A DNA stretch of 64,000 nt from Blastocatellia bacterium AA13 (GCA_003222245.1 QHVH01000004.1:67441-131440), one strand, 5' to 3'; positions 8,369 through 31,024 are shown, numbered from the stretch's first letter. The notes: generated by a model not told the origin, from the letters alone. Numbers and translations are program-made.

Positions 8369-10669
8369 GTGAAAGTACCGTTGCCAAATCTTGATGATCG
8401 CCGCTGGGCCGACCTCGTCGACGAAGGCCGCTCGCTGATACCGGTCTATGCGCCCGATTGGACGGATCACAATGCGCACGATCCCGGAATAACGCTCATC
8501 GAGTTGTTCGCGTGGATCGCGGAGATGGATGTCTATCAGCTCAATCGCATCTCCGATGAAGAAAAGCTGAAGTTCCTCGCCCTGGTCGGAATAACTCCGG
8601 AGCCGCCCCAGACCGCCCACACGGTCCTGAGCCCTTCCTTAAAGGGCGCGGTTTCGCGTCGCTTCGATAGAGGCGCACAGTTCGGCTGCAAGGATTCATT
8701 CGGCGAGCCGATTCTGTTCAGGCTTACGCATCCGGTCACCGCAATGCCCGGTCAGCTTGCGGCGGTTCAGTTCAAGGACGCGAAAGGGTTCCACGACCTC
8801 ACTCCGCGACTGCGGAGAGGCGAGCCGCTGGGCCTGTTTGGCGATGTGCCCGTAATCGGAACCGAGCTCTATCTTGGATTCACACTGCAACCGGTTCTAA
8901 ACGAACCTCTCAATCTGTACTTCGGCTTCACCGGAAGCCGCTCGGGTTTCGATGAACGGCGTCGGTTGCTTGAAGAAAAGAAGAGTCTCTTAAGCGGATG
9001 CCGTCACGCCGCCGATTGCGATAAGGAAGATTGTAGGAACAAGAATTATCACGGCGATCACCATCACCATCACGATCACGATCACCATCACCGTGATCGT
9101 GAAGCGCAAAGGCCGCATCAATCGCTCTCGTTGAACCGAGTGCGGCTGACGTGGGAGTTTGCCGCGAAGGTTAACGACAAACTGGTATGGAAGCCCTTCG
9201 ATGGAAAGCTGAAACAGGTTCGCGATTTCACTCGAAGCTTCACGCTCGACGGCCGCGTGTTGATTCAGGTTCCCGCCGAGATGATTTCTCAATCGCTCGG
9301 TCACGTTGCGCCGGCGCTCTACTACATTCGCTGCAGGTTCGAAGCCGGAGCCTACGACGCGCCGCCGACAGCATCGAACATCGTTATGAACGCCGCGCTC
9401 GCGGAGCAATCCGCGCCCGTTACCGAGAGCTTACCGATCACGTCGGGAGTGACCGCGACGGGAACGGCGCCGAATCCTGGAGACATTCAGGCCATCGAGA
9501 TTGATCTCGATCAAACAGGGTTCATAACAAGCCTGGAATTCAAAGCTCCGACAAACGAATCGCCGGGTTTCCAGATCATCGAATATAAGCCCGCAACCAA
9601 TACCGCAAGCGGGCGGCTGATCATAAGAGCAGCGTGGCTCGGATACGCCAACGGCCGGCCTCATCAACAAGCAGCATTGCCCATTGCCGAAGCTCAACAG
9701 AAAAGCCTCAGGCTCTACTCCGAAGAGGAAGGCCGCTGGCGAATCTGGACCCGGGTCAACGATTTCATTCGTTCAACGCGGCGAGACGCGCGCTTCGAGC
9801 TCGATGCGGCCGAAGCGACGATCATTTTCAGCGACGGCGAGCACGGCCGGGTTCCGCCTGAAGGCGCGAAGCTCTTCGCCGTTTACCGAGCGACCCGGGC
9901 GGAACACGGAAACATAGCTGCTGGAGCCGATTTCAATCTTAGCGACTCGCTTCTCAATCGGATTATTGTTCCGGATTTCGATGCCGTGAGCGCGGACATA
10001 ACGGGTATCACCAACGCCGTAGAAGCGACAGGCGGAACGCCCGCGGAAACTCTGGATCACGCTATTGGTCGAGCCGTCGAATTGATGGACTCGAACTGGC
10101 GGGCCGTAACGCTTCGAGACTGTGAGGAGCTTGCGATCAAGACTCCAGGGGCTCGAATCGCCAGAGCGACGGCCCGCCCCGCACTCCACCCGGGGTTCCC
10201 GTGTTTCGACGCGCCGGGATTGATCACGCTGATCGTGTTGCCGGATATGCCCTCGGCCCGGCCGATGCCGGGCGTCGGTTTGCTTCACGATGTCGAGGCC
10301 TACCTGCGTCCGCGCGAGATCATCGGCACTCGGGTCGAGGTCGTCGGCCCGCGTTACCTCGAAGTAACCGTCGCCGCCGCGGTGAAGGTCCTGGACAAAG
10401 CAAGCAAGACCGCTGTTCAGCGAGACGTGATTGCGGCCTTGAATCGCTTCTTCAATCCGCTCAACGGCGGTCCGGATGGAACCGGTTGGCCCTTCGGCCG
10501 GGATGTATACAGATCGGAAGTCTTACAGGTAATCGACGAGGTTCCGGGCGTCGACTACGTGATTAGTCTGGAGCTCTTCGCCGATGGCTGCGGGCCGCAA
10601 TGCGGCAACGTGTGCCTTGGCCCAACGTGGCTGGTCGCGGCCGGCGATCACGAAATTACCGTTAGCTGA
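8369..10669 (+). CDS. second baseplate wedge protein (baseplate-J-related, Afp12/Cis12-like), with internal His/Asp-rich insert
   Basis: The segment TGGTPAETLDHAIGRAVELMDSNWRAVTLRDCEELAIKTPGARIARATARP is baseplate-J-like. A GTG start follows the previous stop. The insert YHGDHHHHHDHDHHHRDRE lies at about nt 9046-9108. Confidence 0.55.
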   Translation: MKVPLPNLDDRRWADLVDEGRSLIPVYAPDWTDHNAHDPGITLIELFAWIAEMDVYQLNRISDEEKLKFLALVGITPEPPQTAHTVLSPSLKGAVSRRFDRGAQFGCKDSFGEPILFRLTHPVTAMPGQLAAVQFKDAKGFHDLTPRLRRGEPLGLFGDVPVIGTELYLGFTLQPVLNEPLNLYFGFTGSRSGFDERRRLLEEKKSLLSGCRHAADCDKEDCRNKNYHGDHHHHHDHDHHHRDREAQRPHQSLSLNRVRLTWEFAAKVNDKLVWKPFDGKLKQVRDFTRSFTLDGRVLIQVPAEMISQSLGHVAPALYYIRCRFEAGAYDAPPTASNIVMNAALAEQSAPVTESLPITSGVTATGTAPNPGDIQAIEIDLDQTGFITSLEFKAPTNESPGFQIIEYKPATNTASGRLIIRAAWLGYANGRPHQQAALPIAEAQQKSLRLYSEEEGRWRIWTRVNDFIRSTRRDARFELDAAEATIIFSDGEHGRVPPEGAKLFAVYRATRAEHGNIAAGADFNLSDSLLNRIIVPDFDAVSADITGITNAVEATGGTPAETLDHAIGRAVELMDSNWRAVTLRDCEELAIKTPGARIARATARPALHPGFPCFDAPGLITLIVLPDMPSARPMPGVGLLHDVEAYLRPREIIGTRVEVVGPRYLEVTVAAAVKVLDKASKTAVQRDVIAALNRFFNPLNGGPDGTGWPFGRDVYRSEVLQVIDEVPGVDYVISLELFADGCGPQCGNVCLGPTWLVAAGDHEITVS

Positions 10670-10691
10670 GAATCGAGTTTAGAGAAGGCCT

Positions 10692-11873
10692 ATGTTCACA
10701 TCAGGCGAATTCGATGTAGAGCGGTTTCGCTACTGGCAGGGACAGATGCTCCGGTCGCGCGATTTTCGCGATCAGTTCAATGTCGAAGCCGAGCTGCGAT
10801 GGTGGCACAACCGGGCGCTGCACGGCGCCTACGGCGTTCGCAGCGGCTTGAGCGTGACCGCGATCAAGGGTGAGCGGCGATCGATAACCGCCGTGGCGGT
10901 GGATTGCGGAGTCGCATATGACTGCTACGGGCGCGAGATCCTGCTTCAATGTCCGCGCGAGTTGCCGCTTCCGGTATCGAGCCGTCCGGTTCGCCGGTTT
11001 TCTTTGGTGCTTCGCTATAGAAACACGGAGGACTTTCCGAACGGAAGAGAGAGCCGAACCATATGCGCGGCTCCGATAGAAGAACCGGAGATCGCGTGGG
11101 TTCCGTCCGCGCGAATCGACGTGCGGTCGGGTGTCGTCATCGCGCAGTTGAGTTACGAATCCGCGGCGCCTCTCGAAGTCTTGCCGCCCGAGGTGAAGTT
11201 CCCGGATTCGCTTTCGGACCGGATCAGCTACGATGCGGCGAAGAAGCAGCTCGAATTTATCGGCGTAATGACGGCCGCGGAACAATCGCAGTTGCTCGCT
11301 ATTTCAGCGGATGCAGCCTATCCGCGAGCCGTTGAAAAGCTCTTCGAAGCCTCACGGCGGATCCCTGTTATTGTCGAAAACTTCATGCGAACGCCGGCCC
11401 GCGCGCTGACCCGGCCTCGCGTTGCGAGCGGCATGACCGTGGCCGGAGATACGCCGTGGGAGCCATGGATCGAATCCCTCGCGCTGAGGCGTGAAAAAGT
11501 ATCGAGCACGACGATCGGCATGCAGGTGACCATTGATACCTCGGCCGCGGGGTTCACCGAGACACCCTGCTACTTCGCGTGGTTGGAAGGAAAGTTGTGG
11601 GACAGGGGTAACCTCGCGTTCTTTCCCGTTCCGCTGACTCACATAGATAACCCTTCGATAAACCGCTTCAGATTTCGGCTGTGGATGCCGCCCATAGCGC
11701 TTGCGCTTGGATCGCGGCTTCGCAGGGCCAACGTGAACGTGGACGCGGAATTTATAAATTACGCTCGCGAGCACGGACTTGGCGTGTGCTGGATCGGGAT
11801 TCAGCCGATGCCATTTGTAGACAGGCCGTGCGGCGGCCACCCCATGGACTGCGCGACCGCGAGCGAGGAGTAG
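10692..11873 (+). CDS. paralogue A of a 4-member family (conserved N-terminal about 90-aa domain); candidate fibre / baseplate-attached protein
   Basis: The N-terminal pattern FRYWQGQML..RDF..QF..E.ELRWWHNRALHGAYGVRSGLSV...VAVDCGVAYDCYGREILL is shared with 11877, 15233 and 16045. A VIDTS..GF.TPCY block is shared with paralogue B. Confidence 0.55.
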   Translation: MFTSGEFDVERFRYWQGQMLRSRDFRDQFNVEAELRWWHNRALHGAYGVRSGLSVTAIKGERRSITAVAVDCGVAYDCYGREILLQCPRELPLPVSSRPVRRFSLVLRYRNTEDFPNGRESRTICAAPIEEPEIAWVPSARIDVRSGVVIAQLSYESAAPLEVLPPEVKFPDSLSDRISYDAAKKQLEFIGVMTAAEQSQLLAISADAAYPRAVEKLFEASRRIPVIVENFMRTPARALTRPRVASGMTVAGDTPWEPWIESLALRREKVSSTTIGMQVTIDTSAAGFTETPCYFAWLEGKLWDRGNLAFFPVPLTHIDNPSINRFRFRLWMPPIALALGSRLRRANVNVDAEFINYAREHGLGVCWIGIQPMPFVDRPCGGHPMDCATASEE

Positions 11874-11876
11874 ACG

Positions 11877-12962
11877 ATGGATTTCCTGCAAGAGACACGC
11901 TTCATAGAACGGCTTCAGTTCTTCAACGGCGAACGGCTCGATGAATCAGATCTTCAGGGGCTCGAAGCCTTCAATCGCGAGATGCGCTGGCTTCACAATG
12001 CCAGCCTTCATCAACCGGGAATCGGGAACGGATTCGCGGTCTCGGGAAAGAAGGGCGACCGCGAAGTTCAAATCGGACCCGGCTACGCCATCGATGCGCT
12101 GGGCCGCGAAATCGTGATGACACAAAGCCGAATTGAGGCCGTTCCGCCCGTGGCAAAGGAGGATGACGGCAGCGCCGTGCTGTTTGACCTTACGGTCTCA
12201 TATCCCGACGACCAGTATCTGGAAGCCGCCGAAACGCGCGTCGGCATCTGCACCGGACCCGGGGTGATTCGTCTCAAAGAAGAGCCTGTCTTCTGCTGGG
12301 TAAAACTGAGGACGAACGGCCAGCCCGTCGATCCATCAATCAAGCAGGAGATTCTCTCAGGCATGCGGATCATCCTTTGCCGCGCCGAGGTGCTCAATTG
12401 CCAGCTCTATAAAGATGTTTCTATCGCTCAGCGTTTGAACGCGCGTCCGGCAAAACAGCCGTACATATGCTGCGCTTCGGCTGATCTTGGATGGAAAGAA
12501 TGGACGATAGGAACTTTTGACGCCGACGCAATGGACTTTCAGGGATTTATCAGGCTCTTGTTTTCGGGCCTGCCGATGATTCTTCCGGTCGGCTTGCAAG
12601 CGGTGATCGACACTTCCTCGTGTGGATTCCTGACGACGCCCTGCTACAACGCGAGGATCTCGGGTCCTCGATTGAAACAATTCGAAGCGCCGGCTCCCGG
12701 CGGAAACACAATCGAGTCCAGTGAGGCGGGCTCCATCCTGATTCCGTTTATAGCGGATGGACAGATTCAGATTGTGGACCCATCTCCGACCAGCTTCACC
12801 GTAAACGTGCTGCTGATGGTTCAGACTCTGGTGAATCAGCAATTCACCGGCGGAGTTTCTCTTGTCGCTGCTCCGTCCGGCAGCGCCGGCGACGCCATTG
12901 GAAAACTGATCGAGAAATATTTCAGCGATTGGGACCTTGTATGGATGGGGGTCGAGGGTTAA
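11877..12962 (+). CDS. paralogue B of the same family
   Basis: RLQFFNGERL...DLQGLEAFNREMRWLHNASLHQPGIGNGFAV...GYAIDALGREIVM. The central AVIDTSSCGFLTTPCY matches paralogue A. Confidence 0.55.
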   Translation: MDFLQETRFIERLQFFNGERLDESDLQGLEAFNREMRWLHNASLHQPGIGNGFAVSGKKGDREVQIGPGYAIDALGREIVMTQSRIEAVPPVAKEDDGSAVLFDLTVSYPDDQYLEAAETRVGICTGPGVIRLKEEPVFCWVKLRTNGQPVDPSIKQEILSGMRIILCRAEVLNCQLYKDVSIAQRLNARPAKQPYICCASADLGWKEWTIGTFDADAMDFQGFIRLLFSGLPMILPVGLQAVIDTSSCGFLTTPCYNARISGPRLKQFEAPAPGGNTIESSEAGSILIPFIADGQIQIVDPSPTSFTVNVLLMVQTLVNQQFTGGVSLVAAPSGSAGDAIGKLIEKYFSDWDLVWMGVEG

Positions 12963-12965
12963 GAA

Positions 12966-15188
12966 GTGGAAGGAGACAACCGCACAAACTTTTCATACCT
13001 GAATCGCGACGGCGAGTGGCCCGGCTTTCATCGAAGCGGACTCGAGCTTCTGAGCGACGGCGCGCTGCGGTTGCACTCAGTGCCGCTGTTCGACGGCGAC
13101 TTGCCAGATGAGCTGCACGACGCGCCCGATCCTTCGGGTCCGGCCGGCATTGCCGCGGCTCCGGATGGATCGATCTTCTACAGCGACCCGGCCGGCAATC
13201 GCATCATTAGAATAGACGGCTGCGATGGGTCTACGGATGTAGTCCGCTGCATCGCGCGGGAGACCGGGTCGCCGGTTGGACTCAAGACGCCTCGCGGACT
13301 CTTGATTCCGAAGTACAGGCCTTCGCTATTTGTCGCCGACTCCGGAAACAGTCGAATTCAAGTATTCGACCTCGACACGTTTCAGCTTGTGGACGTGTGG
13401 GGACAGACGGACAAGGCGCACGGTGTAAGCCCCAACGCCGGGCCGGGCCGGTTCGATACGCCGTGGGCGCTCGATGCCGACGACAAAGGCGCCATATACG
13501 TAGTCGATTGGGGCAATGCTCGAGTGCGGAAGTTCAACCGCGCCGGAACCCTCGTGCCTTCATTCTGGGACACGATGAAGCAGGCGGGCCTGCTCGAGAA
13601 ACCGTCCGGCATCAGCGTCGCTTCGAAGGCCGGTCATACGCGGTTGTACGTTTTGGATGAATCCAAATTATGTATCTTCGTTTTTGACCAGGACGGCAAT
13701 CCGGTTAGCGACAGCGGCGGAAACCCCATCAATTTTGGAACGGGACTGTTGTCGAAGCCGATGGGTCTCGCGGCGTCAGACGATGCGGTTTACGTTGGTG
13801 ACAATCAGCGGCGCCGCATACTGGTATTCAAGCACGAAGATGATTACGGCTTCGCGGGTGAGGCGGTCGGTTATCAGGGTCCAATAGCGGCGCTGGCTTT
13901 GGATGGCAAAGGCCATCTGCTCGTGCACAGCGGCCTTGATGTCGCGCCGTTCAGCCTTGCAATCGACGAAGGATTTCAGAACAAAGGCGCATTGTGGAGC
14001 GGCCCAATTCGCGTTCGCGAGCTTCCGGTTAGATGGCATCGCCTGCAAGCGCTGATGAGCCGCACCGGATCAGGAGCGCGCCTCAGATTATTCGTTCACA
14101 CAGCAGACGACCAGACCGATCAGCCCGTCGTCAATTTCGCGGCGGATGACCCCTTCGCCGATCTTCGCTGGCGGCCTGCGTCGAGCGAGCCGTTTACGAA
14201 TCTGGACGACCTCTATATAGGAGGCGACGCGGCGACATATGTCTGGGTCGGAGCGCTCTTCTTGAGCGACGGTGTTTCGACCGCGGTGCTCTCTCAGCTC
14301 CGCGTCGAGTTCGATCACGAAACTTATTTGAAGCACCTGCCCGCGATCTATGGCGAGCCGTCTCCCTGCGGCGATTTCTTAACCAGGTTCCTGTCTCTGT
14401 TTGAGACGTTCTTTGATGGAACCGAGCAAACGATTGCCGAGATTGCGCGCTTCTTCGATCCGGCGGTTATCCCGTCCGAGTTCCTGTCGTGGCTCGCGGG
14501 GTGGCTCGCGCTCGAGCTCGATGAAGACTGGGACGAAGCGCGCAAGCGAGAGCTGATCGCCGAGGCATTTCAGATCTATGGAAGGCGTGGAACCGCGCGC
14601 GGCTTGCGAGAAGCGTTGCGGCTCTATGCGGGTGTGGACGCGATCATTGAAGAACCGATCAGATATGCGCAGTGGTGGGCGTTGCCTCGTGAATCCGCCT
14701 CGTGTGAATGCAGCGACGGTTCGCAAGCCTCAAACGAACCGAGATGGGAAGGCACGGAGAACTCGATTCTCGGCGTCAGCACTTCGCTTGCCGGAGCCGA
14801 GCCGCAGGGCGCCGTAGTCGGCTCGACCGCGATACTCGACCAGTCTCATTTGATAGGCAGCGAAGAATACGGCTCGCCGTTATTCGTGGATCTGGCGGAT
14901 CGATTTACGGTGCAGATCTACCGCGGCCAGTTGAGCTGCCCCGAAACTCTTGCGCGTGTACACGACGTGATACGCCGCGAGAAACCCGCGCATACGGACT
15001 ATCACCTGTGCGTGATCGAACCGCGATTGCGCGCCGGTTATCAAGCGCGAGTCGGAATAGACACCGTAGTCTCCGGACCTCCGCTGCCTTCGGCGCTTGA
15101 TGAAGCAAGCGAGATAGTGCTGGGCGGACAACCTGCCGGCCGCGCAGGCTCTGGAAACATGATCGGCATCACGGCCCGTGTCGGATGA
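12966..15188 (+). CDS. baseplate wedge / fibre-attachment protein, P2 gpI-family C-terminal domain fused to an N-terminal NHL-repeat beta-propeller
   Basis: NHL-type repeats are present (SIFYSDPAGNRIIRID; LFVADSGNSRIQVFD; IYVVDWGNARVRKFN; VYVGDNQRRRILVF). The C-terminal block FLSWLAGWLALELDEDWDEARKRELIAEAFQIYGRRGTARGLREALRLY is typical of phage tail protein I. It has a GTG start. Confidence 0.6.
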   Translation: MEGDNRTNFSYLNRDGEWPGFHRSGLELLSDGALRLHSVPLFDGDLPDELHDAPDPSGPAGIAAAPDGSIFYSDPAGNRIIRIDGCDGSTDVVRCIARETGSPVGLKTPRGLLIPKYRPSLFVADSGNSRIQVFDLDTFQLVDVWGQTDKAHGVSPNAGPGRFDTPWALDADDKGAIYVVDWGNARVRKFNRAGTLVPSFWDTMKQAGLLEKPSGISVASKAGHTRLYVLDESKLCIFVFDQDGNPVSDSGGNPINFGTGLLSKPMGLAASDDAVYVGDNQRRRILVFKHEDDYGFAGEAVGYQGPIAALALDGKGHLLVHSGLDVAPFSLAIDEGFQNKGALWSGPIRVRELPVRWHRLQALMSRTGSGARLRLFVHTADDQTDQPVVNFAADDPFADLRWRPASSEPFTNLDDLYIGGDAATYVWVGALFLSDGVSTAVLSQLRVEFDHETYLKHLPAIYGEPSPCGDFLTRFLSLFETFFDGTEQTIAEIARFFDPAVIPSEFLSWLAGWLALELDEDWDEARKRELIAEAFQIYGRRGTARGLREALRLYAGVDAIIEEPIRYAQWWALPRESASCECSDGSQASNEPRWEGTENSILGVSTSLAGAEPQGAVVGSTAILDQSHLIGSEEYGSPLFVDLADRFTVQIYRGQLSCPETLARVHDVIRREKPAHTDYHLCVIEPRLRAGYQARVGIDTVVSGPPLPSALDEASEIVLGGQPAGRAGSGNMIGITARVG

Positions 15189-15232
15189 TCGCGGGGAGAG
15201 GCAAGCCTCGCAAACAACCAGGAGGACAATTC

Positions 15233-16030
15233 ATGTCACATCACAACGTACAACAATCTCAGCGCCGCGATCTGAAGACGCCGGCCGATTTGAAGACCCC
15301 GGTGCGCAATCGGTACTTCTACGGCAAGCTGCTCGACGTCATGCAGCTCACGATGGAGCAGGATTACTTCAACTCCAAGCGGTCGCTGGCGAATCGTCTG
15401 ATCACTGGTCCGGGAGTTGTGTGCGGGCTGGACGTCGAGCTGACGAGCGACAACAAAGGCGTGATCGTTTTGCCCGGGGTCGCCATAGATCGATGCGGGC
15501 GCGAGATCATAGTCACGCATCCATCGAAACCCGTCGAGCTTCCGCCGCTCCCGCCGCACGAGTCCGAATCCGAAGACTACAAGCCGCGATACGGCGGCAG
15601 GTCCGAGCACCATCACTACTGCGAAGAGGAATACGCGCACGTGCTGCTCTGCTATCACGAATGTGAGAGCGATCCGGTTCGAGCAGTCGCGGGTGATTGC
15701 GAGACCGTTGCTTTTTGCGAGCCCGGTTGCATTCGCGAGCAATACGAAGTCGAAGTCCGTGAAGGCTTCGCGCCCGAGCGCAAGAGCAACTTTCCCGACG
15801 TGATCGACGGCCGGCGGATCAGCTACGCGGCGATAGCCGAATACGTGACCAGAGGATGCCGCGCTCTTCCGGACGATTGTTGCATACCGCTCGCGAATAT
15901 ACGGCTCAGGGACACCGACAACGGATGGGAGCCCGAGGTCGATATCGCTATTCGCCCAATCGTGTACAACAACCGGCTCTTGTTCGACCTGATCCAATCG
16001 CTGGTCAAAGACGAAGACACCGAATATTGA
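15233..16030 (+). CDS. paralogue C (short, 265 aa) of the 4-member family
   Basis: RNRYFYGKLLDVMQLTMEQDYFNSKRSLANRLITGPGVVCGLDV......VIVLPGVAIDRCGREIIV. An AGGAGGA ribosome-binding site precedes ATG 15233. The ORF track's 5' extension overlaps the gpI-like stop. Confidence 0.55.
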   Translation: MSHHNVQQSQRRDLKTPADLKTPVRNRYFYGKLLDVMQLTMEQDYFNSKRSLANRLITGPGVVCGLDVELTSDNKGVIVLPGVAIDRCGREIIVTHPSKPVELPPLPPHESESEDYKPRYGGRSEHHHYCEEEYAHVLLCYHECESDPVRAVAGDCETVAFCEPGCIREQYEVEVREGFAPERKSNFPDVIDGRRISYAAIAEYVTRGCRALPDDCCIPLANIRLRDTDNGWEPEVDIAIRPIVYNNRLLFDLIQSLVKDEDTEY

Positions 16031-16044
16031 GAGGGAGACGAGTC

Positions 16045-17277
16045 ATGAAAACCGCTACTGTATGCCGTGAGATTCCGTGCGATCACAGCGTCGCGGAGAG
16101 GCCTCGCTACTATGCGGGCAAGGTGATCACGCACTACGACCTGAACCTGGAACAGGATTACTTTCGCAGCAAGCTTCGCCGGCACAATCGCATGCTCCAC
16201 GGCTGGGGCGTGGTATGCGGCGCGCTTGTATGCAAGCTCCCGAAGTCCAAAGAGAACGGAACAAAGTTCGAGCCGTGGAAGGTCGTCGTCAAGCCGGGCT
16301 GCCTTCTCGGCCCCTACGGAGACGAGATCATCATCGACTGCATCCGCACCGTCGATCTTCGGACCCAGGGAGTCGTCGGAATCACCGGCGAGCCTTGTGT
16401 GGACGCCGTCGATCCATGGTGCAGTCAGGTCGTTCAGGAGCCTTCGGGCGGCAAGCTCTACATCGCGGTCAGGTACAAAGAGGTTCCGGCGAGGCCGGTT
16501 CGAGTACAGCCCGTTGGGTGCGGCTGCGATGACAGCCAGTGCGAGAATTCGCGATACGTGGATGGGTATGAGATCGCGGTATTGGATCACTGTCCTAACT
16601 CGGAAGATATTCCGCCGGGAAGGATTAGTACGAAGACCGGACCAATTCCGGAGTGTCCTCCGTGCCCGGACGAGCCGTGGGTCGGTTTGGCGGAAGTGGA
16701 AATCGATGCGGACGGCAATGTGACGATCGACAACTGCATCTGCAGACGCCTTGTTGTCTCGCTGGCGAACTCCTGGTGGCAATGCAGCGACGAGCAGGTC
16801 GCAGCGCGGCCGGCGCCCGAGGGCGGCCCCGAGGGCGGCATGAATTCTCCGGCTCCGCCCGTCAATCTGCCTCGCGCGGTTGTCATAAGAGCCGCTCAAC
16901 CCGCTGAAAGACTTCAACCCAATTCGGAAAACACCATCACGGTGACCGGCGAGAATCTGGATATGGTCAAGAGGGTCGACTTCGGGTCCGGAGCCGGAAT
17001 TGCGGTTGCGGGATTCGAAGCGACTCCGACCCAGCTAGTCGTACACGTCAAGCTCGATTCCAGCGCCGCCGCGGGTCCGCGCAGCCTGCTGCTTAGAGAC
17101 GCGGACGGCAGGGAGGTCGAGATGAAGAATGCCGTTTCGATTGAGGGAACGGCGCCGACGGGAAGCAACCCGTCTCAGCCGGCCCCGGCCAATCAGCCGC
17201 CGGCGGCTAAAGCGCAGGCATCAAGCTCGAAGACAGCAAGCAAACGGCCGCGCAAGACACCGAAGGAAGAGGTCTGA
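16045..17277 (+). CDS. paralogue D, with C-terminal IPT/TIG-like Ig domain and a Pro/Ala/Lys-rich tail
   Basis: RPRYYAGKVITHYDLNLEQDYFRSKLRRHNRMLHGWGVVCGALV. The C-terminus ITVTGENLDMVKRVDFGSGAGIAVAGFEATPTQLVVHVKLDSSAAAGPRSLLLRDADGREVEM is IPT-like. This is followed by NPSQPAPANQPPAAKAQASSSKTASKRPRKTPKEEV. A GAGGGAGA ribosome-binding site precedes ATG 16045. Confidence 0.55.
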   Translation: MKTATVCREIPCDHSVAERPRYYAGKVITHYDLNLEQDYFRSKLRRHNRMLHGWGVVCGALVCKLPKSKENGTKFEPWKVVVKPGCLLGPYGDEIIIDCIRTVDLRTQGVVGITGEPCVDAVDPWCSQVVQEPSGGKLYIAVRYKEVPARPVRVQPVGCGCDDSQCENSRYVDGYEIAVLDHCPNSEDIPPGRISTKTGPIPECPPCPDEPWVGLAEVEIDADGNVTIDNCICRRLVVSLANSWWQCSDEQVAARPAPEGGPEGGMNSPAPPVNLPRAVVIRAAQPAERLQPNSENTITVTGENLDMVKRVDFGSGAGIAVAGFEATPTQLVVHVKLDSSAAAGPRSLLLRDADGREVEMKNAVSIEGTAPTGSNPSQPAPANQPPAAKAQASSSKTASKRPRKTPKEEV

Positions 17278-17380: not shown

Positions 17381-19075
17381 ATGTTTACTAGAAAACATAA
17401 AAAGACCGGGGAACGGGATTCCGAACAGGGCTCCGCATCGCGCTCCGAAGCCGTTCAATCAAATCCCATACTCGCGTTGCAGCAAACCGCGGGCAATCAA
17501 GCGGTGCAGAGGCTCCTTGCGGGCCCGAATGACGAAACCGCCCAGACGGTCGATGGAAGCTCGGCTAGTTTGCAGCCGATGCGTTCCGGCCTTGTCGGAC
17601 CTGAATCCAATGCGGCGCCGCCTATAGTTCACGAAGTATTGCAGTCTGCCGGCGAGCCGTTGAACGAGTCCGCGCGGGAATATATGGAGCCGCGCTTCGG
17701 CCACGACTTCAGCCAGGTGCGGATTCACACGAATTCGCAAGCAACCGAGTCCGCGCGAGCCATCAACGCGAACGCCTACACAGTTGGACGTCACGTCATC
17801 CTCGATCGAAATAAGAACCCCGAAGGCTCGGCGGCCGAGCAGCAGGTGCTCGCGCACGAGCTGGCTCACGTAGTCCAACAGAAGGGGGCTGCTCCAGGAC
17901 CGAAGCTCACAATAGGCGCTGCCGGCAATGCAGCCGAGCGTGAAGCGGATACCGCCGCGGATAAAGTCACCGGCGGCTCCAAAGCGGCTCCCCGAGCCGG
18001 TTCGAGCGCGCAATCCGGGGAAGTTCAACGGGACGGCCCCGATAAGACGCCGACTCCTCCGCGCACTCCATACGACAAAATGATCGTCGCGCGAGCGAAG
18101 AAGCGGCTCGAGCTGCTGAACCAGTACGTCACCGAATACACGATCCGCGAGGCGCGGCGGCTTCGGTCGAAATCGGAGCTCAATACAACTCTCGACAAAC
18201 GGGAGAAGATGGATACCGAAGGCGACAACCCCTTCGAGGAATTCGAACAGCGCGGAAAAATGGAGAAGCAGCGAATGGCTGCTCTGAACAAACGGCCCCT
18301 CGATATCGAGATCACGGAGACCGATGTCAAAATCAAGGTCAAGTTTCAGGTTCGCTTCGAAGACCCGACTCAAGATTCAAGATTCAGCGAAGTGAAATCC
18401 GGCCTCGAGAAAGGCATCGATCAAATATGGAACCAGACCCTGAAAGGCGATGTCTTCGGCGGGCGCACATTCACGGTTGAGCCGGACATCGTGAAGATGG
18501 GGCCGAAGGATGGCCGAGACTTGAATCGATGGCTGGTCACCGTGCGTCCTACCGACTCCAGTCCGGTCGCCTATCCCGGTTGCACGCTCGATCAACCTCC
18601 GCCGGGCACGCCTACCTCGGTTACCGATCCGGGATGTGACGGCGGCGTGATGAGCATCCCGCCTTCGCATATCACGAAGCCGGATATACTCGGCCACGAG
18701 CTGCTTCATCTGTTCGGCTTCGTAGACCGTTACATCATGCAGACTATAGTCATACCGGGAAGAAAGCCTCGGACGGTTACTCAATCGACTCGGAAAACGG
18801 GCGGCCGCCCCGATCCGCTGGGATCTGAATCCGGCAAGGTTCTCTCCGAAGACATAGCATTTCTGTTCGACAATCTGGGCGTCTATCAAATGGAGCAGAG
18901 CCGCGGGCTCGAGACCCTGCGTTCGCTGGAAAAACAAGGCCTCAGCTTTGCCGCCGTTCAAGGAGAGATACATCGGCAAGAAGAGATCATTCAGACGGGC
19001 CGCGACCCTCATTCGCTCATCCGGATACGCCCGAACTTCAACGACGTGATGATCAAAGAAGCGGAAGATCTATGA
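17381..19075 (+). CDS. eCIS-associated putative toxin: DUF4157 (HExxH) domain protein with a C-terminal second metallopeptidase-like domain
   Basis: The DUF4157 signature is LQSAGEPLNESAREYMEPRFGHDFSQVRIHTNSQATESARAINANAYTVGRHVIL...QQVLAHELAHVVQQ. The N-terminal motif is NPILALQQTAGNQAVQRLL. The C-terminus carries ILGHELLHLFGFVDRY. Confidence 0.8.
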   Translation: MFTRKHKKTGERDSEQGSASRSEAVQSNPILALQQTAGNQAVQRLLAGPNDETAQTVDGSSASLQPMRSGLVGPESNAAPPIVHEVLQSAGEPLNESAREYMEPRFGHDFSQVRIHTNSQATESARAINANAYTVGRHVILDRNKNPEGSAAEQQVLAHELAHVVQQKGAAPGPKLTIGAAGNAAEREADTAADKVTGGSKAAPRAGSSAQSGEVQRDGPDKTPTPPRTPYDKMIVARAKKRLELLNQYVTEYTIREARRLRSKSELNTTLDKREKMDTEGDNPFEEFEQRGKMEKQRMAALNKRPLDIEITETDVKIKVKFQVRFEDPTQDSRFSEVKSGLEKGIDQIWNQTLKGDVFGGRTFTVEPDIVKMGPKDGRDLNRWLVTVRPTDSSPVAYPGCTLDQPPPGTPTSVTDPGCDGGVMSIPPSHITKPDILGHELLHLFGFVDRYIMQTIVIPGRKPRTVTQSTRKTGGRPDPLGSESGKVLSEDIAFLFDNLGVYQMEQSRGLETLRSLEKQGLSFAAVQGEIHRQEEIIQTGRDPHSLIRIRPNFNDVMIKEAEDL

Positions 19076-19144
19076 TGGAATTGTCCGAGGGGCATCCGGG
19101 AATAACGCACGGTTCATTGAATGGCATTCCGAGGAACAGTGGGG

Positions 19145-19470
19145 AATTGTCCCTTCGGGACAATCAGAATTGTCCCGGAGGGACATTCGGCAATAGCCCA
19201 CCAGTTCACTGGTGGGTTCGTCGGGCAAGTTGATCGAGAAGTGCCGAAGGCACGGCTGACTTGTTGTTGTCAGAGCGCCGCAACAGGACCAGACAGATAT
19301 TGCAGATCATTGATGTGGTTGTCCCGAAGGGACAATCGGCAATAGCCCACCAGTTCACTGGTGGGTTCGTCGGGTAATTTGATCCGAGAGGCGCCGAAGG
19401 CACGGCTGACTTGTTGTTTCAGAGCGCCGCAACAGGACCACATACATATTGCAGATTTCTGATATGGTTC
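19145..19470. repeat. two tandem copies of a roughly 149-bp repeat, plus flanking partial copies, rich in perfect palindromes
   Basis: Unit 1 spans about 19169-19318 and unit 2 about 19318-19468, with roughly 90% identity. Each unit contains tgtcccNNNNgggaca, cccaccagttcactggtggg and gccgaaggcacggc hairpins. The tgtccc..gggaca motif recurs at 19149 and 19500. Confidence 0.8.
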
Positions 19471-19565
19471 AAAGCCTCCACACACGAACGACATCAGCCG
19501 TCCCTTCGGGACTAGATCGCCGCAGCGCTCTGGGACCCACCGATGAATCGGTGGGCTACGTTGGA

Positions 19566-19623
19566 CAATCCCTACGGGATTCACAATCCCTACGGGATTG
19601 ACAACGATCTCTACGGGATCGTA
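19566..19623. promoter_or_regulatory. candidate operator: two perfect 15-bp palindromes (aatccctacgggatt) spaced 18 bp apart plus a degenerate third copy, 36-92 bp upstream of effector-2 ATG
   Basis: aatccctacgggatt occurs at 19567-19581 and 19585-19599. The degenerate copy atctctacgggatcgta is at 19607-19623. A further palindrome cccaccgatgaatcggtggg lies at 19536-19555. Confidence 0.4.
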
Positions 19624-19658
19624 CGCACTCTATTGTTGCTAGTGACCGAAGCAGGTGA

Positions 19659-21641
19659 ATGGAGAAGCAGGCTACACAAACCAATAAACAAGTCTCCGCG
19701 GCCCAGTCGCGAAGCGCCAACGGACAGCTCGCTCCTGAACTCATCTCGAATCCCATTCTTCAACTCCAAAAAAAGGCGGGCAATCGCGCGGTGCTCAATC
19801 TGCTTGGTCCTATGGTGGAGCCCCAATCCGCGGCCGATCCGGCAAAGACCCAGCGTCCGAATCTCTCAGCCGCCGCGCTGAGCGTTCAGCGTGTCCCGAA
19901 TGGACGCGGCTCCGAAGCAAGTCCCCAGAATCAAGATTCGCATGCAGCCGCCTCGTTCATAGTTGAGGACAATGCGGAGTCGCTTGCGCACGGCCAGATG
20001 CACAAGAGCGAATTCCTCGCTCAACTTCGCGCGAGTGTCTGCCGAACCGCCGACGAAGAGTTGCAGCGAGCAGGCCAGACCGCCAAAGGCTGCCCCTATA
20101 TCGAAAAGTGGCTCGCTCATTATCGAGACAAGGATCCCGTTCATATCGAACGCGCGCTTCGCAAGTACGCTCCCGAAGCGGCGCGAGCCACGACCGCGCG
20201 AGAATACATTCCGGCGGTCGAGAACCGCGTGCGCCGTGCGATCAATAACTGGGCAAGAACCGGCGAGATCACCGGCGTTCCGGACGAGTTGAAGGGCTTG
20301 ATCCCTGGAGCGGGAGGAGGGCTCGCCGGAATGATCGGCGGCGCGGTGTCGAGTATCTTAAGCGGCATCGGCAGCGCGCTGTCCTCGGCTGCGGGAGCGA
20401 TCGGGGGTGCATTCGCGAGCATCGGACGCGCCTTGTTCAAAGGCAAAGAAGGCAGGGCTCCCGCAAACAACAGTCCTCGAAATATTCAATCGAGATTGGG
20501 GACCGGTCAGCCGCTCGAGGGAAGCGTTCGCTCGCGGATGAGCAGTGCCTTTGGGCACGACTTTTCAAACGTTCGAGTTCATACGGAAACGCATGACGCT
20601 GCTATGTCCGAGAGCCTCAACGCCAGGGCCTTTACCATCGGCAGCGACATTGCGTTCGGCCCGGGCGAGTATCAACCTGGTACGTTAGTAGGCGATGCGC
20701 TCTTGGCTCACGAGCTCGCTCACGTAGTCCAGCAGCGGAACGCTCAACCCGCCGTCGCCGCTCAAGTCGGCAATCACGCAACCGAAGTCTACGAGGCCGA
20801 AGCCGATGTCGCGGCGGCCAATGCCGTAGCCGGGCTTCACGGCCTGCGCACGGCTCGCCCGACCACATCGTTGTTGAGCGCGCCTCGTCTGCAGAGCTGC
20901 GGCAAGAAGCCGCCGCAGATTCGCGTGCCGTTCGGCGCGTCGCTCACCGAGCAGCAGGCGGATCAGCTTCTCGCAAGCGATCCCGTGATCTGGCCTCGCA
21001 TCAAGAACCGAGTCGCGAAAGGGGTCAAAGCCGAAGGGCATACGAGAGAACTGGGCTCCGAAGCATACCTGTACGCGGCGAGGGAAAAGGTGTTCAAGGA
21101 CAAGCTCAGTCTTCGACAGACTTCGTTCCAGATGATGAACGCTGGAGGCTTCGCTCAGGACGGCGAGATATACCTGCATAGGAAGGACGCCGAGATGCTG
21201 GATGTGATGGGAGGCCCCGACCGAGGGCCGGTTCCTATTCCGCCAAGCCGCCATCCGGCCACAATAGTTCACGAAGACGTCCATCTGTACGGTTCGGGCG
21301 CCTGGGTGACTAAAACAGGACGAGCGGGTAACGAAGGCACGACCGAGTACTTCACACGCCGAGTGCTTTCAAAGCAGAAGAACCCGGAAATCGAAGGCGG
21401 AGAGAAGATATTCGAGAGGGATTCGTATCCCGATGAGTACGAGGCCGTGAAGTGCCTGGCAAAGAAAGCCAATGACGAGCTTCTGGCGGACGCTTTCTTC
21501 CTCGGCACAATCGATCCGCTTAGAAAAAAAGTCGGCGAAGCCAAGTTCGATGCGTGGGCCACGGCCATGACCAACGACAATTACAACGGCGCTTACGCCG
21601 CTCTCGGCTCCAAGCCTCCCGCCAAGAAGAAAGAAGATTGA
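19659..21641 (+). CDS. eCIS-associated putative toxin 2: central DUF4157 (HExxH) domain, N-terminal glycine-zipper hydrophobic segment, C-terminal HEDVH-containing domain
   Basis: The N-terminal motif is NPILQLQKKAGNRAVLNLL. The DUF4157 region is GQPLEGSVRSRMSSAFGHDFSNVRVHTETHDAAMSESLNARAFTIGSDIAF...LLAHELAHVVQQ. The glycine-rich segment is GAGGGLAGMIGGAVSSILSGIGSALSSAAGAIGGAFASIG. The C-terminus carries TIVHEDVHLYG. Confidence 0.8.
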   Translation: MEKQATQTNKQVSAAQSRSANGQLAPELISNPILQLQKKAGNRAVLNLLGPMVEPQSAADPAKTQRPNLSAAALSVQRVPNGRGSEASPQNQDSHAAASFIVEDNAESLAHGQMHKSEFLAQLRASVCRTADEELQRAGQTAKGCPYIEKWLAHYRDKDPVHIERALRKYAPEAARATTAREYIPAVENRVRRAINNWARTGEITGVPDELKGLIPGAGGGLAGMIGGAVSSILSGIGSALSSAAGAIGGAFASIGRALFKGKEGRAPANNSPRNIQSRLGTGQPLEGSVRSRMSSAFGHDFSNVRVHTETHDAAMSESLNARAFTIGSDIAFGPGEYQPGTLVGDALLAHELAHVVQQRNAQPAVAAQVGNHATEVYEAEADVAAANAVAGLHGLRTARPTTSLLSAPRLQSCGKKPPQIRVPFGASLTEQQADQLLASDPVIWPRIKNRVAKGVKAEGHTRELGSEAYLYAAREKVFKDKLSLRQTSFQMMNAGGFAQDGEIYLHRKDAEMLDVMGGPDRGPVPIPPSRHPATIVHEDVHLYGSGAWVTKTGRAGNEGTTEYFTRRVLSKQKNPEIEGGEKIFERDSYPDEYEAVKCLAKKANDELLADAFFLGTIDPLRKKVGEAKFDAWATAMTNDNYNGAYAALGSKPPAKKKED

Positions 21642-21648
21642 GGCTCGA

Positions 21649-22926
21649 ATGACGATGCGAGGCGATAAGCTCTTCTTCAAAACGGCCGCGGCCGGACCTG
21701 GAGAGTTGTTGAACAAAGTCTGCGATGCGCTGGCGACGCCGAGGCTTCACTTTCTCGATATCGATCTGCCGGCCTACGGAGTTTTTGTTTGCCTGGGCGG
21801 CGCGGCCGGACTTGTTATGACCTTCGTGATCGCGATTAGTATTCGTCTTCCGCCGGCGCCGCTGTTTATAGCGGCCGTTGGAGGAATCTTTGTAGCGCTG
21901 ACGTTTGCATATCTGACTAAGGTAGTCACCGGAACCGAGGTATATACGTTCTATCACTATCAGATTGCCGTGCTGGCGGGCGCAGGGATGCTGCTCTGGC
22001 TTGTGGGCGAGCCGCCATTGCGAAATATAGACGTGTTGACTCTATCGTTGGGTCTGACACAGGCGATTGGCCGAATAGGATGCTTTGGTGCCGGCTGCTG
22101 TTATGGGAGACCGAGGCGCTTTGGCGTTTGCTACAACCGCCGGCATGCTTCAATCGGATTCCCGAGCTCACTTGTCGGCGTGCGGCTCTTTCCGATTCAA
22201 CTGGTCGAATCGTGTTGGATTGCAATTGTCGTTAGCAGTGGAATCCTGTCGATCGTCCGTGGCGCGGCGCCGGGTTCGGCTCTGGCGTGGTATGTCGTCC
22301 TCTACGGAAGCGGCCGATTCATTTTCGAGTTTCTGCGGCTCGACACCGGCTTTGTTCCCGGAAAATTATCCGAGGCGCAGATCACATCTCTAACTCTGAT
22401 TCTTGCGGTCGTCTGCGCGGAGTTGCGCGGGCTGCTGGTGATGGAATCCGTACACCTGATCTGCGTCGCCCTATTGATTGCGTCGGCCTGCGCGATTCGA
22501 ATGCTTCGAAAAAGAGAAATACCGTTTTCCGCGTCGCACGTGTTCGAAATCGCGGAGGCGGTTCAACGAGCCGAGCGCGATATGACTTCATCACCTGAGC
22601 TCGAACGAATCGCGGTTGAACAAACCTCGCGCGGCGTGTTGATCTCCGCGGGCAGAATTCCCAGGGGCGCTAACTCCTTCTCCCAACCGCGCGACACGAG
22701 ACACCAGATAGCGGTCACCTCTCACCTGTACCCTGTCACTCCTACCCTCTCACTTCTAACCTCTCCGGGCTCCTATTCTTCGATCTTCCACTACTGCGTC
22801 TCGGGCGCGGAGATCGGTGAACGGAGCGCCCTCGCCGTAGCCCGCTTGATAGGGCGCCTACGATGCGGAAGCGGCTCCTTTAGCCTCTTTGAGGGCGATC
22901 AAGCCTTTCACGTGATCATCGATTAG
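21649..22926 (+). CDS. Lgt-family (prolipoprotein diacylglyceryl transferase-like) polytopic membrane protein with a roughly 130-aa C-terminal extension. The signature is divergent.
   Basis: GLTQAIGRIGCFGAGCCYGRP aligns with the Lgt signature G-R-[IL]-G-N-F-x-N-x-E-x-x-G-R, with Cys at the N and E positions. It has multiple transmembrane segments. It starts 8 nt after the effector-2 stop. Confidence 0.55.
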   Translation: MTMRGDKLFFKTAAAGPGELLNKVCDALATPRLHFLDIDLPAYGVFVCLGGAAGLVMTFVIAISIRLPPAPLFIAAVGGIFVALTFAYLTKVVTGTEVYTFYHYQIAVLAGAGMLLWLVGEPPLRNIDVLTLSLGLTQAIGRIGCFGAGCCYGRPRRFGVCYNRRHASIGFPSSLVGVRLFPIQLVESCWIAIVVSSGILSIVRGAAPGSALAWYVVLYGSGRFIFEFLRLDTGFVPGKLSEAQITSLTLILAVVCAELRGLLVMESVHLICVALLIASACAIRMLRKREIPFSASHVFEIAEAVQRAERDMTSSPELERIAVEQTSRGVLISAGRIPRGANSFSQPRDTRHQIAVTSHLYPVTPTLSLLTSPGSYSSIFHYCVSGAEIGERSALAVARLIGRLRCGSGSFSLFEGDQAFHVIID

Positions 22927-24935: not shown

Positions 24936-26370
24936 TCAATCCCAATAGGGTACGTATTTTGCGTATCGTCTCGATCTATTGGAAGGATCGTCCGGCTTAA
25001 TCCTCCCCTGTTGGATTGCATCCGCAATCACTCTGGATACCGCCTCCTTCTTGCTCTCCGGCAGTTTGAATCGATCTCGTAAGGTCGTGTTGGTCATTTT
25101 CTTATTCATGATCCACCGGAGAACAGAGTGCTGGAAACAGGCTCGTACACGTTCCTTTGCATCCATATCATCGAAGGATTTATGGGCGTACATGATTGCT
25201 AGAGTGTGCCTATCACTTACACGAAAATCGGGTGGCGGCAGTTGGTATATCTCGGCGTGCGCTATTACCCTATCTATCCCGAGCCCCTGTTCTTCGCAAA
25301 TGCCTAACCGTCGCATAATGTCGGCAAGCTTTTCGTTTCGCGACTCATATTCATCAATGAATCGATCTGGTGAGATAATAGACTTACCAGGATTTGAAAT
25401 CTCGATGCGATCACTATACAGCTCAATCGTCACGGATGTTCCGGTTGCTCTGAATTCCTGATGGATAAGAGCATTCGCAACTAATTCTCGTATCGCGATT
25501 TCGGGAAACATCTTCACTTCTTGACGGAAGGCTGGGCCGATTACATCGTTGGCTGGAATCTGAGCCTTAATGAAGCTAATCAAACTCGCAAAACCGAGAA
25601 CGTATCCTTTGTTGCCGTGCGCAAAGACCCGACTATTTTCAAGTTTGTTAGGACCGTCATATACAATGACCCTTGGGCCTTTCCGGGTAAGGCCCTCGAA
25701 TTGTTTTAGGTTCTTTGCGAATAGGACCGCACCAAGATTACTAATGGCATAGTCATGATTGCCTTCGGAGATCAGGTGTTCATTCTTGAAGCGTTCAAGA
25801 ACGGCATCCCGATTTGTGGGATAGGTTTTGCCGGTCGTAGTAAATCTGAGTATCTAGCAGCCGAATCACGTCACTGGCGGAGCAATTATCGAGCGCTGTA
25901 CGCCTAAACCATTCCGGATTCCCCTCATCGAAGATTTCACGAAGCCTTTCGGCGGTCATAGGTATCAGTTCTTCACCCGAGCGCATCCAATAGGCTCCCT
26001 CAAGATGACAGGCGGTGCCGCGATGTCGAGAGGGAACATGAAAAATTACAACTCGACCGTTTGGATGGCTCAACGCTTCCACTTTCACCAAGAAATGCAG
26101 TTTGTTGAGAATCTTCTGTTGAATGTCGCCGGGATTCTCAAATGCATTTGTCCCAACTACTTGTCTAGGAATCTTATTGGTGACGCCGAGAACCAATTTT
26201 CCGCCACGTTCATTGGCGAGAGCCACGCAATACCGAAATAGCTTTGTAGTATCAAACTGAGTCTTTGCTTCTTTGAATTCTAGGTTCTCGGTTTCTCGCG
26301 GCGCGTCCATCCATCGCTCCAAGTCTGCGATTGTGGTGGTCGCGCTCATAATCCCTACACGATAGAACAC
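24936..26370 (-). pseudogene. AlbA_2 (divergent AAA/Schlafen-like) plus HATPase_c_4 ATP-binding protein, split by a frameshift or short deletion into two ORFs (25795-26370 N-terminal half; 24936-25583 C-terminal half)
   Basis: The N-terminal piece LEFKEAKTQFDTTKLFRYCVALANERGGKLVLGV is AlbA_2. The C-terminal piece IRELVANALIHQEF...TIELYSDRIEISNPG is HATPase_c_4. The two domains normally form one polypeptide. A 211-nt gap and a frame change separate the pieces. The region is lower in GC than its flanks. Confidence 0.6.
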
Positions 26371-29921: not shown

Positions 29922-29948
29922 CGAGATCACGTCAGGCAGGAGGTAACG

Positions 29949-30992: not shown

Positions 30993-31024
30993 GCCGGTTC
31001 CTCATTCACACAGGAAAGCACGAA

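Follow-up and report, generated by a model that had tools for sequence, protein, structure and literature searches.

The genome of Blastocatellia bacterium AA13, a soil acidobacterium, carries, at the 3′ end of a complete contractile injection system (CIS) cluster, two tandem genes, here called P1 and P2, whose products combine a common N-terminal sequence motif (the leader), a DUF4157 core, and C-terminal heads that are predicted to be zinc peptidases of two different folds. We studied them in a stretch of 64,000 nucleotides (QHVH01000004.1, 67441-131440), referred to below as the window. P1 and P2 are further members of the known class of PVC-metallopeptidase/DUF4157 polymorphic effectors and not a new type of system, and they agree with the model of that class in every feature readable from sequence. 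An earlier note on this DNA had proposed them as candidate injected toxins; the idea fits the known class but is not new (Zhang 2012; Geller 2021; Xu 2022), and the overall biology of DUF4157 effectors at the 3′ end of an extracellular CIS (eCIS) operon is already established. The two head families, the conserved leader, an alternative Cys-rich leader and, in P2, a domain X, a glycine zipper and a junction motif are not described in the class literature that we compared (Zhang 2012, Geller 2021, Xu 2022, Danov 2024). The main value of the finding lies in the leader and the junction motif, which offer testable entry points to loading and to the function of DUF4157.

DUF4157 Cores and the Common Leader

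DUF4157 is the PVC-metallopeptidase domain, PF13699, whose present Pfam name is 'eCIS core domain' (gathering cut-off, 22 bits). The window holds exactly two PF13699 cores, one in each protein (Table 1), and an in-frame stop immediately precedes the ATG of both genes. The earlier note had described a tandem DUF4157 pair and suggested a PF13699 profile search; both open reading frames (ORFs) lie where it had placed them and both match the profile. The strings it quoted, SNPILALQQTAGNQAVQRLL and SNPILQLQKKAGNRAVLNLL, are likewise present, as is HELAHVVQQ in each protein. Zhang 2012 (PMC3482391), who named the domain PVC-metallopeptidase, defined it by HExxHxxQ...E, and this signature is complete in P1 and P2, with HELAHVVQQ followed 20–30 residues on by AEREAD in P1 and by EAEAD in P2. 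Residues 175-196 of P1 are probably the third helix of the DUF4157 peptidase, which would carry the signature Glu. Weak Pfam matches to Peptidase_M91 and M78 were discarded; they map to the HExxH region of DUF4157 and leave the C-terminal heads uncovered.

When P1 and P2 were compared by BLASTP, the DUF4157 cores aligned with 40% identity (E 2e-18), and a separate N-terminal match joined P1 aa 27-48 to P2 aa 30-51 (E 7e-5). The C-terminal parts showed no significant BLASTP similarity to each other. To avoid circularity in characterizing the N-terminal match, we used an independent hidden Markov model (HMM) made from 81 leaders of other proteins, each at most 73% identical to those of the window. 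Run against the six-frame translation of the window (104,502 residues), this model found only P1 and P2, the next best match having an E value of 3.3. The common motif that the earlier note had reported about 30 aa from the start of both proteins is recovered by BLASTP and by the HMM, well above what chance would give. Its consensus, LxLQRxAGNRAVxxLL, covers about 20 aa, lies about 30 residues from the N-terminus, and is the sole conserved element of the N-terminal region of P1 and P2.

The leader occurs in 112 of the 369 proteins that we collected, where its start always falls within the first 65 residues and typically at residues 29-37. Fifteen of these 112 proteins have no PF13699 core and consist of the leader followed only by a head like that of P2 (CTD2, below). 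Because the leader is also found on proteins without DUF4157, it behaves as an independent N-terminal module. Within the window it is present in P1 and P2 only, and it is common to all three DUF4157 proteins of the cluster, the third of which is encoded just upstream of the window. Among the genome loci scanned, the motif is confined to Acidobacteriota. Judged from these sequences, the leader is an independent, N-terminal, lineage-restricted module common to all cargo candidates of the system. Over their first 50 residues P1, P2, and the third protein are strongly hydrophilic, with a net charge of +2 at residues 6-21, and the N-termini of P1 and P2 have no hydrophobic segment of the Sec/Tat type. 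In being hydrophilic and slightly basic, the N-termini of P1 and P2 resemble the eCIS signals described by Danov 2024 (PMC11297309). A full-text literature search for the leader as a string returned no relevant paper.

A second type of leader, LLQRKCACG..C..C, with four Cys and a zinc-ribbon-like appearance, was seen on 22 PF13699 proteins (for example P0300, P0315, P0316, and P0324). Across the 369 proteins, this Cys-rich leader and the LxLQRxAGNRAV leader never occur on the same protein.

Predicted Peptidase Heads and the P2 Carrier

The earlier note had reported a second HExxH in the C-terminal domain of P1 and a differing HExxH domain at the end of P2, neither of which it could name. We located the first in HELLHLFGFVDRY at P1 aa 439-451 and the second in HEDVHLYG at P2 aa 538-545; the two domains, here CTD1 and CTD2 (CTD, C-terminal domain), indeed match nothing in Pfam, NCBIfam, or the sequences of the PDB. 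No NCBIfam model matched any part of P1 or P2, and searches of all PDB chains with both full sequences and with profiles of CTD1, CTD2, and domain X gave nothing significant. The heads also match none of the named Pfam toxin peptidase families (the Tox-MPTase families, ATLF, and M91). CTD1, known here from at least 8 phyla, and CTD2 add two well-defined, unnamed families of predicted zinc-peptidase heads to the catalogue of CIS-delivered effectors.

In an alignment of 85 CTD1 sequences (alignment A2), H439, E440, H443, D449, R450, and Y451 are invariant. The extended zinc motif HELLHLFGFVD corresponds to HExxHxxGxxD, with its Gly conserved in at least 90% of the sequences. The structure of CTD1 is predicted with confidence, and its top matches are metzincins, whose catalytic fold it reproduces. 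No column with Met in at least 50% of the 85 sequences was found downstream of the DRY motif, and because a conserved Met-turn methionine is missing we call CTD1 metzincin-like and do not file it in a metzincin family. CTD1 is predicted to be active as a metzincin-like zinc endopeptidase whose third zinc ligand is Asp. Snapalysin (M7) and the ulilysin/adamalysin-type domains share with CTD1 the HExxHxxGxxD motif and the predicted catalytic fold, at no more than 13% identity over about 140 aligned residues; unlike these metzincins, CTD1 has an N-terminal helical hairpin of about 75 residues and a helical C-terminal extension.

Clustered at the 90% level, the relatives of CTD1 number at least 101; all align over its full length, and all place it at the C-terminal end. 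It stands behind PF13699 in 69 of the 85 aligned members and is preceded by varied N-termini; no Pfam family covers it in any of the 85. A pattern scan with one genome per species returned 20 loci. The CTD1 genes found belong to Acidobacteriota, Rokubacteria, Alpha- and Gammaproteobacteria, Cyanobacteria, Bacteroidota, Actinomycetota, and Myxococcota, and no Algoriphagus locus was among the 20. The CTD1 genes nearly always have other PF13699 genes beside them, in runs of as many as seven, and genes for baseplate, spike, or tube proteins are frequent neighbors. At five of the 20 loci (L002, L003, L004, L010, and L018; E≤1e-12) a CTD2-like gluzincin gene lies next to the CTD1 gene, as in the window. 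Such neighbors come from Rokubacteria, Alphaproteobacteria, and Bacteroidota, and weaker cases were seen in L009 and L016. The adjacency may reflect a recurrent effector pair or the mere abundance of the CTD2-like module.

In CTD2, the last ~115 aa form a widespread module that is always found at the extreme C-terminus and has at least 358 representatives. H538, E539, H542, E559, and G560 are invariant in 114 sequences, which follow the pattern HExxH-x16-NEGxTEY (alignment A3). The structure is predicted with confidence, and the top matches are gluzincins with the thermolysin/M1-type fold. The catalytic domain of M1 aminopeptidases and thermolysin resemble CTD2 both in this predicted fold and in pairing HExxH with a Glu in an NEGxxEY-type helix. 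The model suggests that CTD2 is a gluzincin-like zinc peptidase (HExxH-x16-E), with activity again a prediction. No Pfam family and no PDB sequence relative was found for it. The CTD2-like module also occurs behind WXG100 and VgrG3-like regions.

The part of P2 that precedes its head is itself widely distributed: when 8000 candidates were scored against aa 1-415, at least 962 proved to be relatives at E≤1e-5. Profiled for conservation across 120 relatives, this part begins with the leader and a poorly conserved linker, continues with domain X and the glycine zipper, and ends with PF13699, then an acidic helix (LEE.AD), and last the junction motif. The strongly conserved domain X follows the pattern LIVEDDA..PGQMRKSEFL..GCPYIE.W..HIERALRKYAPE..RVRR..W..TGEITGVP, has 20 invariant columns (alignment A4), and matches nothing in Pfam or the PDB. 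The segment at aa 218-262 is 66% Gly/Ala/Ser with a continuous small-xxx-small pattern and is moderately hydrophobic (KD19 maximum 1.44); one may speculate that this glycine zipper helps P2 to cross or disturb a membrane.

Similarity between relatives of the P2 carrier stops at the junction (aa ~400-430). Residues 1-414 are a constant carrier kept in at least 120 proteins, and unrelated C-terminal heads follow it, as in polymorphic toxins. These include CHAP/DUF7689, ATLF (anthrax-lethal-factor-like), TGL (transglutaminase), and Aspzincin_M35 domains, with CTD2-like heads in 19 of the 120. Because its relatives combine the same carrier with other heads, P2 is one allele of a polymorphic toxin family. 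The earlier note's predicted architecture of a loading signal, a DUF4157 domain, and a variable toxin domain holds in its layout and agrees with the published model for the class; it is refined by the additional conserved modules that precede DUF4157 in P2 and by the third family member upstream of the window.

Zhang 2012 (PMC3482391) proposed that the PVC-metallopeptidase frees the head by autoproteolysis, and the sharp junction motif offers a concrete place to seek this long-suspected DUF4157 autoprocessing. That the motif is a processing site is speculation on our part. Triplets of a hydrophobic residue, Gln, and Arg/Lys were observed near module boundaries at P1 aa 215-217, at P2 aa 76-78, and at the P2 junction (aa 411-413). 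In 78 CTD1 proteins the 35 residues before CTD1 hold 22 such sites against 4 expected, and the triplet is present at 47 of 116 P2-type junctions. We rejected the triplet as a cleavage mark at every boundary, as it is found in only 19 of the 78 CTD1 proteins and the third junction residue is often Ser, Asn, or Gly; that it is a protease site at all is a guess.

Cluster Context and Proposed Function

Pfam and NCBIfam matches 5′ of P1 reveal genes for tube/LysM, gpD-like, gpV spike, PAAR, gp25, two Baseplate_J, one NHL + Tail_P2_I, and four CIS13-family proteins. The window begins mid-cluster, and we read the 5′ part from two contigs of ENA metagenome assemblies (L021 and L022, CRIT18-1) that carry identical genes. 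There the order is a WHD+AAA ATPase of the Cis15/Pvc15 type, the third PF13699 protein, two small proteins, a Pvc16_N cap, sheath, gp19 tube, and DUF6760; the same contigs place PAAR and gp25 inside the window. P1 and P2 thus close the 3′ end of a complete CIS cluster that has a Cis15/CDC48-type AAA+ ATPase. The third PF13699 protein (L022 1105-2514, 469 aa), encoded directly after this ATPase, has a leader with the same motif as P1 and P2, ALVGLQQSIGNRAVGHLLQS. Its ~230-aa C-terminal domain has no HExxH and no Pfam match and differs from the heads of P1 and P2. The small proteins encoded between it and the cap gene are HEAT-like and CxxCxxCC.

The closest relatives of P1 and P2 are from Blastocatellia and Pyrinomonadaceae. 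From these relatives and from an RNA motif in the spacer between the genes that is typical of Acidobacteria, an Acidobacteriota source is very probable. The order NHL/P2_I, two CIS13-like genes, PF13699 array, and LGT-like gene recurs in a Pyrinomonadaceae metagenome-assembled genome and in another contig, and is seen in the related cluster L025. In L025 the LGT-like gene directly follows a CTD2-bearing DUF4157 gene, as it does in the window; a CTD2-like domain is located at L025 14012-14668.

[quoted passage not shown] Here too an adjacent pair of DUF4157 proteins in an eCIS cluster has an NTD-DUF4157-CTD layout with similar hydrophilic NTDs and different CTDs, and a second HExxH like that of Cgo1 is present in both P1 and P2. 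The systems differ in phylum, in that no leader similarity is detectable between them, and in the extra domain and glycine zipper before DUF4157 in P2. Loading has been seen experimentally for Cgo1 and Cgo2, whereas P1 and P2 are known here from their genes. Loading of Cgo1 and Cgo2 needs the N-terminal region, with DUF4157 dispensable (bioRxiv 10.64898/2026.05.27.728243), and leaders are not conserved between systems (PROCIS preprint, 10.64898/2026.05.27.728243).

PVC/Afp payloads (Pdp1, Pnf, and Afp18) need a hydrophilic N-terminal region of ~20-50 aa for tube loading, with the Pvc15 ATPase aiding (10.64898/2026.05.27.728243; Danov 2024, PMC11297309), and the present cluster encodes a matching ATPase. 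In contrast to the PVC/Afp leaders, which have no conserved sequence and whose payloads have no DUF4157, P1 and P2 show a sharply conserved motif at a fixed distance from the N-terminus. With the PVC-metallopeptidase toxins and eCIS-associated toxins (PMC3482391, PMC8213781, PMC11297309) P1 and P2 share the frequent absence of immunity genes and peptidase heads, which are a listed toxin class. The Streptomyces davawensis CIS effector Tme (BN159_7576) also contains DUF4157, with predicted membrane-spanning segments between it and the C-terminal toxin domain (PMC11126660) that are comparable to the glycine zipper of P2. Tme differs in exceeding 2,200 residues, in its relation to tape-measure proteins, its nuclease head and its cytoplasmic CIS, while the hydrophobic stretch of P2 precedes DUF4157.

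We consider it probable that the particle encoded upstream carries P1 and P2 as its cargo. After synthesis of both in the cytoplasm, each with an N-terminal region that is hydrophilic, the leader would direct loading into the tube, aided by the AAA+ ATPase, contraction would expel the cargo into or onto a target cell, and the C-terminal heads would be the active parts, acting as zinc peptidases in the target. This reading is favored because of the CIS context, PF13699, the shared leader, the peptidase heads, the modularity, and the AlgoCIS precedent. Observed in this analysis were the context of the genes, their domain content, the conserved catalytic residues, the predicted folds, and the modularity; from them we infer loading, injection, toxicity, proteolytic activity, and target. 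PF13699 is probably not the loading determinant and most likely has an accessory role, which could be autoprocessing and release of the head or an aid to refolding.

A more specific proposal, which we put forward tentatively and hold to be possible though doubtful, is that LxLQRxAGNRAVxxLL is a sequence-specific loading signal which the Cis15-type ATPase, or some other assembly factor, recognizes in a large, mostly soil-borne CIS lineage, that the Cys-rich leader serves the same purpose, and that the SGL(R/K)LQ(R/S)C junction is the site at which DUF4157 releases the head. If true, this would give eCISs their first transplantable leader defined by sequence and DUF4157 its first defined substrate. 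Engineering of eCIS protein delivery now uses long, ill-defined N-terminal regions, and the 20-aa motif is a testable candidate for a minimal loading tag.

Loading, maturation, and chaperone roles have been raised for DUF4157 (Geller 2021, PMC8213781; Danov 2024, PMC11297309), and P1 and P2 might accordingly be accessory factors of the machine, whose peptidase domains act within the producer, in cis or in trans, to process, mature, or chaperone other components or other effectors. Such a role would suit the Pfam name 'eCIS core domain', the position of the third DUF4157 gene beside the ATPase amid assembly genes, and the lack of immunity genes for P1 and P2. It is nevertheless unlikely, given that both proteins have the layout of polymorphic toxins with a variable head at the extreme C-terminus, that the same carrier bears classical toxin heads (CHAP, ATLF, and transglutaminase), and that the homologous AlgoCIS class sits inside the tube and is released on contraction.

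No adjacent immunity gene was found for P1 or P2: the 584-bp spacer between them contains no plausible ORF, and an LGT-like gene follows P2. Many PVC-type toxins come without immunity genes (Zhang 2012, PMC3482391), and the absence here fits targets that are unlike the producer (Zhang 2012). It would also fit a CIS that is not extracellular and fires inside its producer, as in Streptomyces, or proteins that help to lyse the cell, so that P1 and P2 would act on proteins of the producer itself during regulated cell death or the release of particles. The cytoplasmic CISs of Streptomyces with DUF4157 effectors (Tme) give this idea a precedent, and a conserved LGT-like membrane protein closes the array. 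The four CIS13-family fiber-type proteins and the NHL-repeat baseplate protein are, however, equipment with which extracellular particles typically bind their targets. Moreover, a related locus (L026 10001-21755) interleaves PF13699 effectors (584, 1256, and 1095 aa) with small ORFs that measure 111-165 aa, a sign that the targets lie in other cells. We regard action within the producer as quite improbable. The L026 arrangement looks like effectors with immunity genes and suggests that some relatives aim at bacteria.

It is very improbable that P1 and P2 are ordinary peptidases merely beside the CIS cluster, exported independently or not at all: a repeat-filled 584-bp spacer separates the two genes, a stable hairpin lies between the structural genes and the effectors, and co-transcription with the structural genes is not required, but PF13699 is strongly specific for eCIS loci (odds ratio 2614; Geller 2021, PMC8213781), the gene order is kept in several genomes, and the hydrophilic N-termini have no Sec/Tat-type hydrophobic segment. 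Delivery of P1 and P2 as cargo is preferred over these alternatives because of the polymorphic-toxin layout, the conserved synteny, the fiber-type genes, and the AlgoCIS precedent.

Neighboring Genes and Minor Features

Table 1. Features of the P1/P2 region and its surroundings (positions counted from the first letter of the window).
Feature	Position	Strand	Details
P1 gene	17381-19075	+	564 aa; leader, PF13699, CTD1 metzincin-like peptidase
P1 leader motif	17459..17524	+	aa 27-48: SNPILALQQTAGNQAVQRLLAG; independent HMM E 4.5e-9
P1 PF13699 core	17657..17890	+	aa 93-170; Pfam E 3.1e-29, 101.4 bits; HELAHVVQQ aa 159-167 at its end
P1 helix KLTIG..AEREAD..	17903..17968	+	aa 175-196; from sequence
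CTD1	18068..19072	+	aa 230-564; long helical hairpin, then metzincin-like catalytic domain
CTD1 zinc motif HELLHLFGFVDRY	18695..18733	+	alignment A2
P2 gene	19659-21641	+	660 aa; leader, domain X, glycine zipper, PF13699, junction motif, CTD2 gluzincin-like peptidase
P2 leader motif	19746..19811	+	aa 30-51: SNPILQLQKKAGNRAVLNLLGP; independent HMM E 5.5e-7
Domain X	19956..20309	+	aa 100-217, 118 aa; conservation profile over 120 relatives
Glycine-zipper segment	20310..20444	+	aa 218-262; kept in relatives
P2 PF13699 core	20511..20744	+	aa 285-362; Pfam E 1.2e-30, 105.9 bits; HELAHVVQQ aa 351-359
P2 helix EVYEAEAD	20784-20828	+	aa 376-390; after PF13699 core
Junction motif SAPRLQSC	20877..20900	+	aa 407-414; family consensus (L/M)(R/K)SGL(R/K)LQ(R/S)C
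CTD2	20901..21638	+	aa 415-660; gluzincin-like peptidase head
CTD2 zinc motif HEDVH-x16-NEGTTEYFTRR	21270..21362	+	alignment A3
CIS structural genes 5′ of effectors	1488..17277	+	Pfam and NCBIfam matches
Four CIS13-family paralogues	10692-11873, 11877-12962, 15185-16030, ~16045-17277		tail-fiber-type N-terminus shared, C-terminal parts differ
P2_I-type baseplate protein with NHL repeats	12966-15188		
LGT-like membrane protein	21649..22926	+	425 aa; starts 8 nt after P2 stop; PF01790 partial match E 1.3e-19
Hairpin before P1	17332-17368		13 nt before P1 start codon
Spacer between P1 and P2	19076-19658		584-bp
Acido-Lenti-1 (RF01687), copy 1	19171-19216	-	
Acido-Lenti-1 (RF01687), copy 2	19320-19365	-	
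Acido-Lenti-1 (RF01687), copy 3	19536-19581	+	
Three short hairpin repeats	19565-19621		ACAATCCCTACGGGATT
Schlafen AlbA_2 and HATPase_c_4 proteins	24936-26370	-	downstream of cluster
Polysaccharide gene set	27277-33418	+	

In two related Acidobacteriota clusters, too, an LGT-like membrane protein of ~400-425 aa is encoded behind the last DUF4157 effector: at L001 7306-8427, where the product is 40% identical, and at L025 14829-16043. The protein may have a role in immunity, envelope modification, or release. Among the CIS13-family paralogues, the last had been listed as an ORF at 15856-17277 that overlaps the preceding gene; its true start is probably an internal ATG near 16045.

The spacer between P1 and P2 contains two direct repeats of ~149 bp and three copies of Acido-Lenti-1, a motif typical of Acidobacteria, which score 37.6-41.8 bits against a gathering score of 37 and are the only Rfam matches in the window. 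That copies lie on both strands speaks for a repeat element and against a small RNA gene, and the motif is absent from six related loci. Scanning for promoters and terminators turned up no signal above background from which transcription units could be defined. The hairpin before P1 is stable and GC-rich, has no U-tract, and lies within the 103 nt that separate the last structural gene from P1; the 118-nt region around it has a minimum free energy of -42.8 kcal/mol (z -2.2). Farther downstream, past the Schlafen AlbA_2 and HATPase_c_4 genes, the polysaccharide set comprises TPR, Wzy_C O-antigen ligase-like, Poly_export/SLBB, and Wzz-GNVR tyrosine-kinase-type genes.

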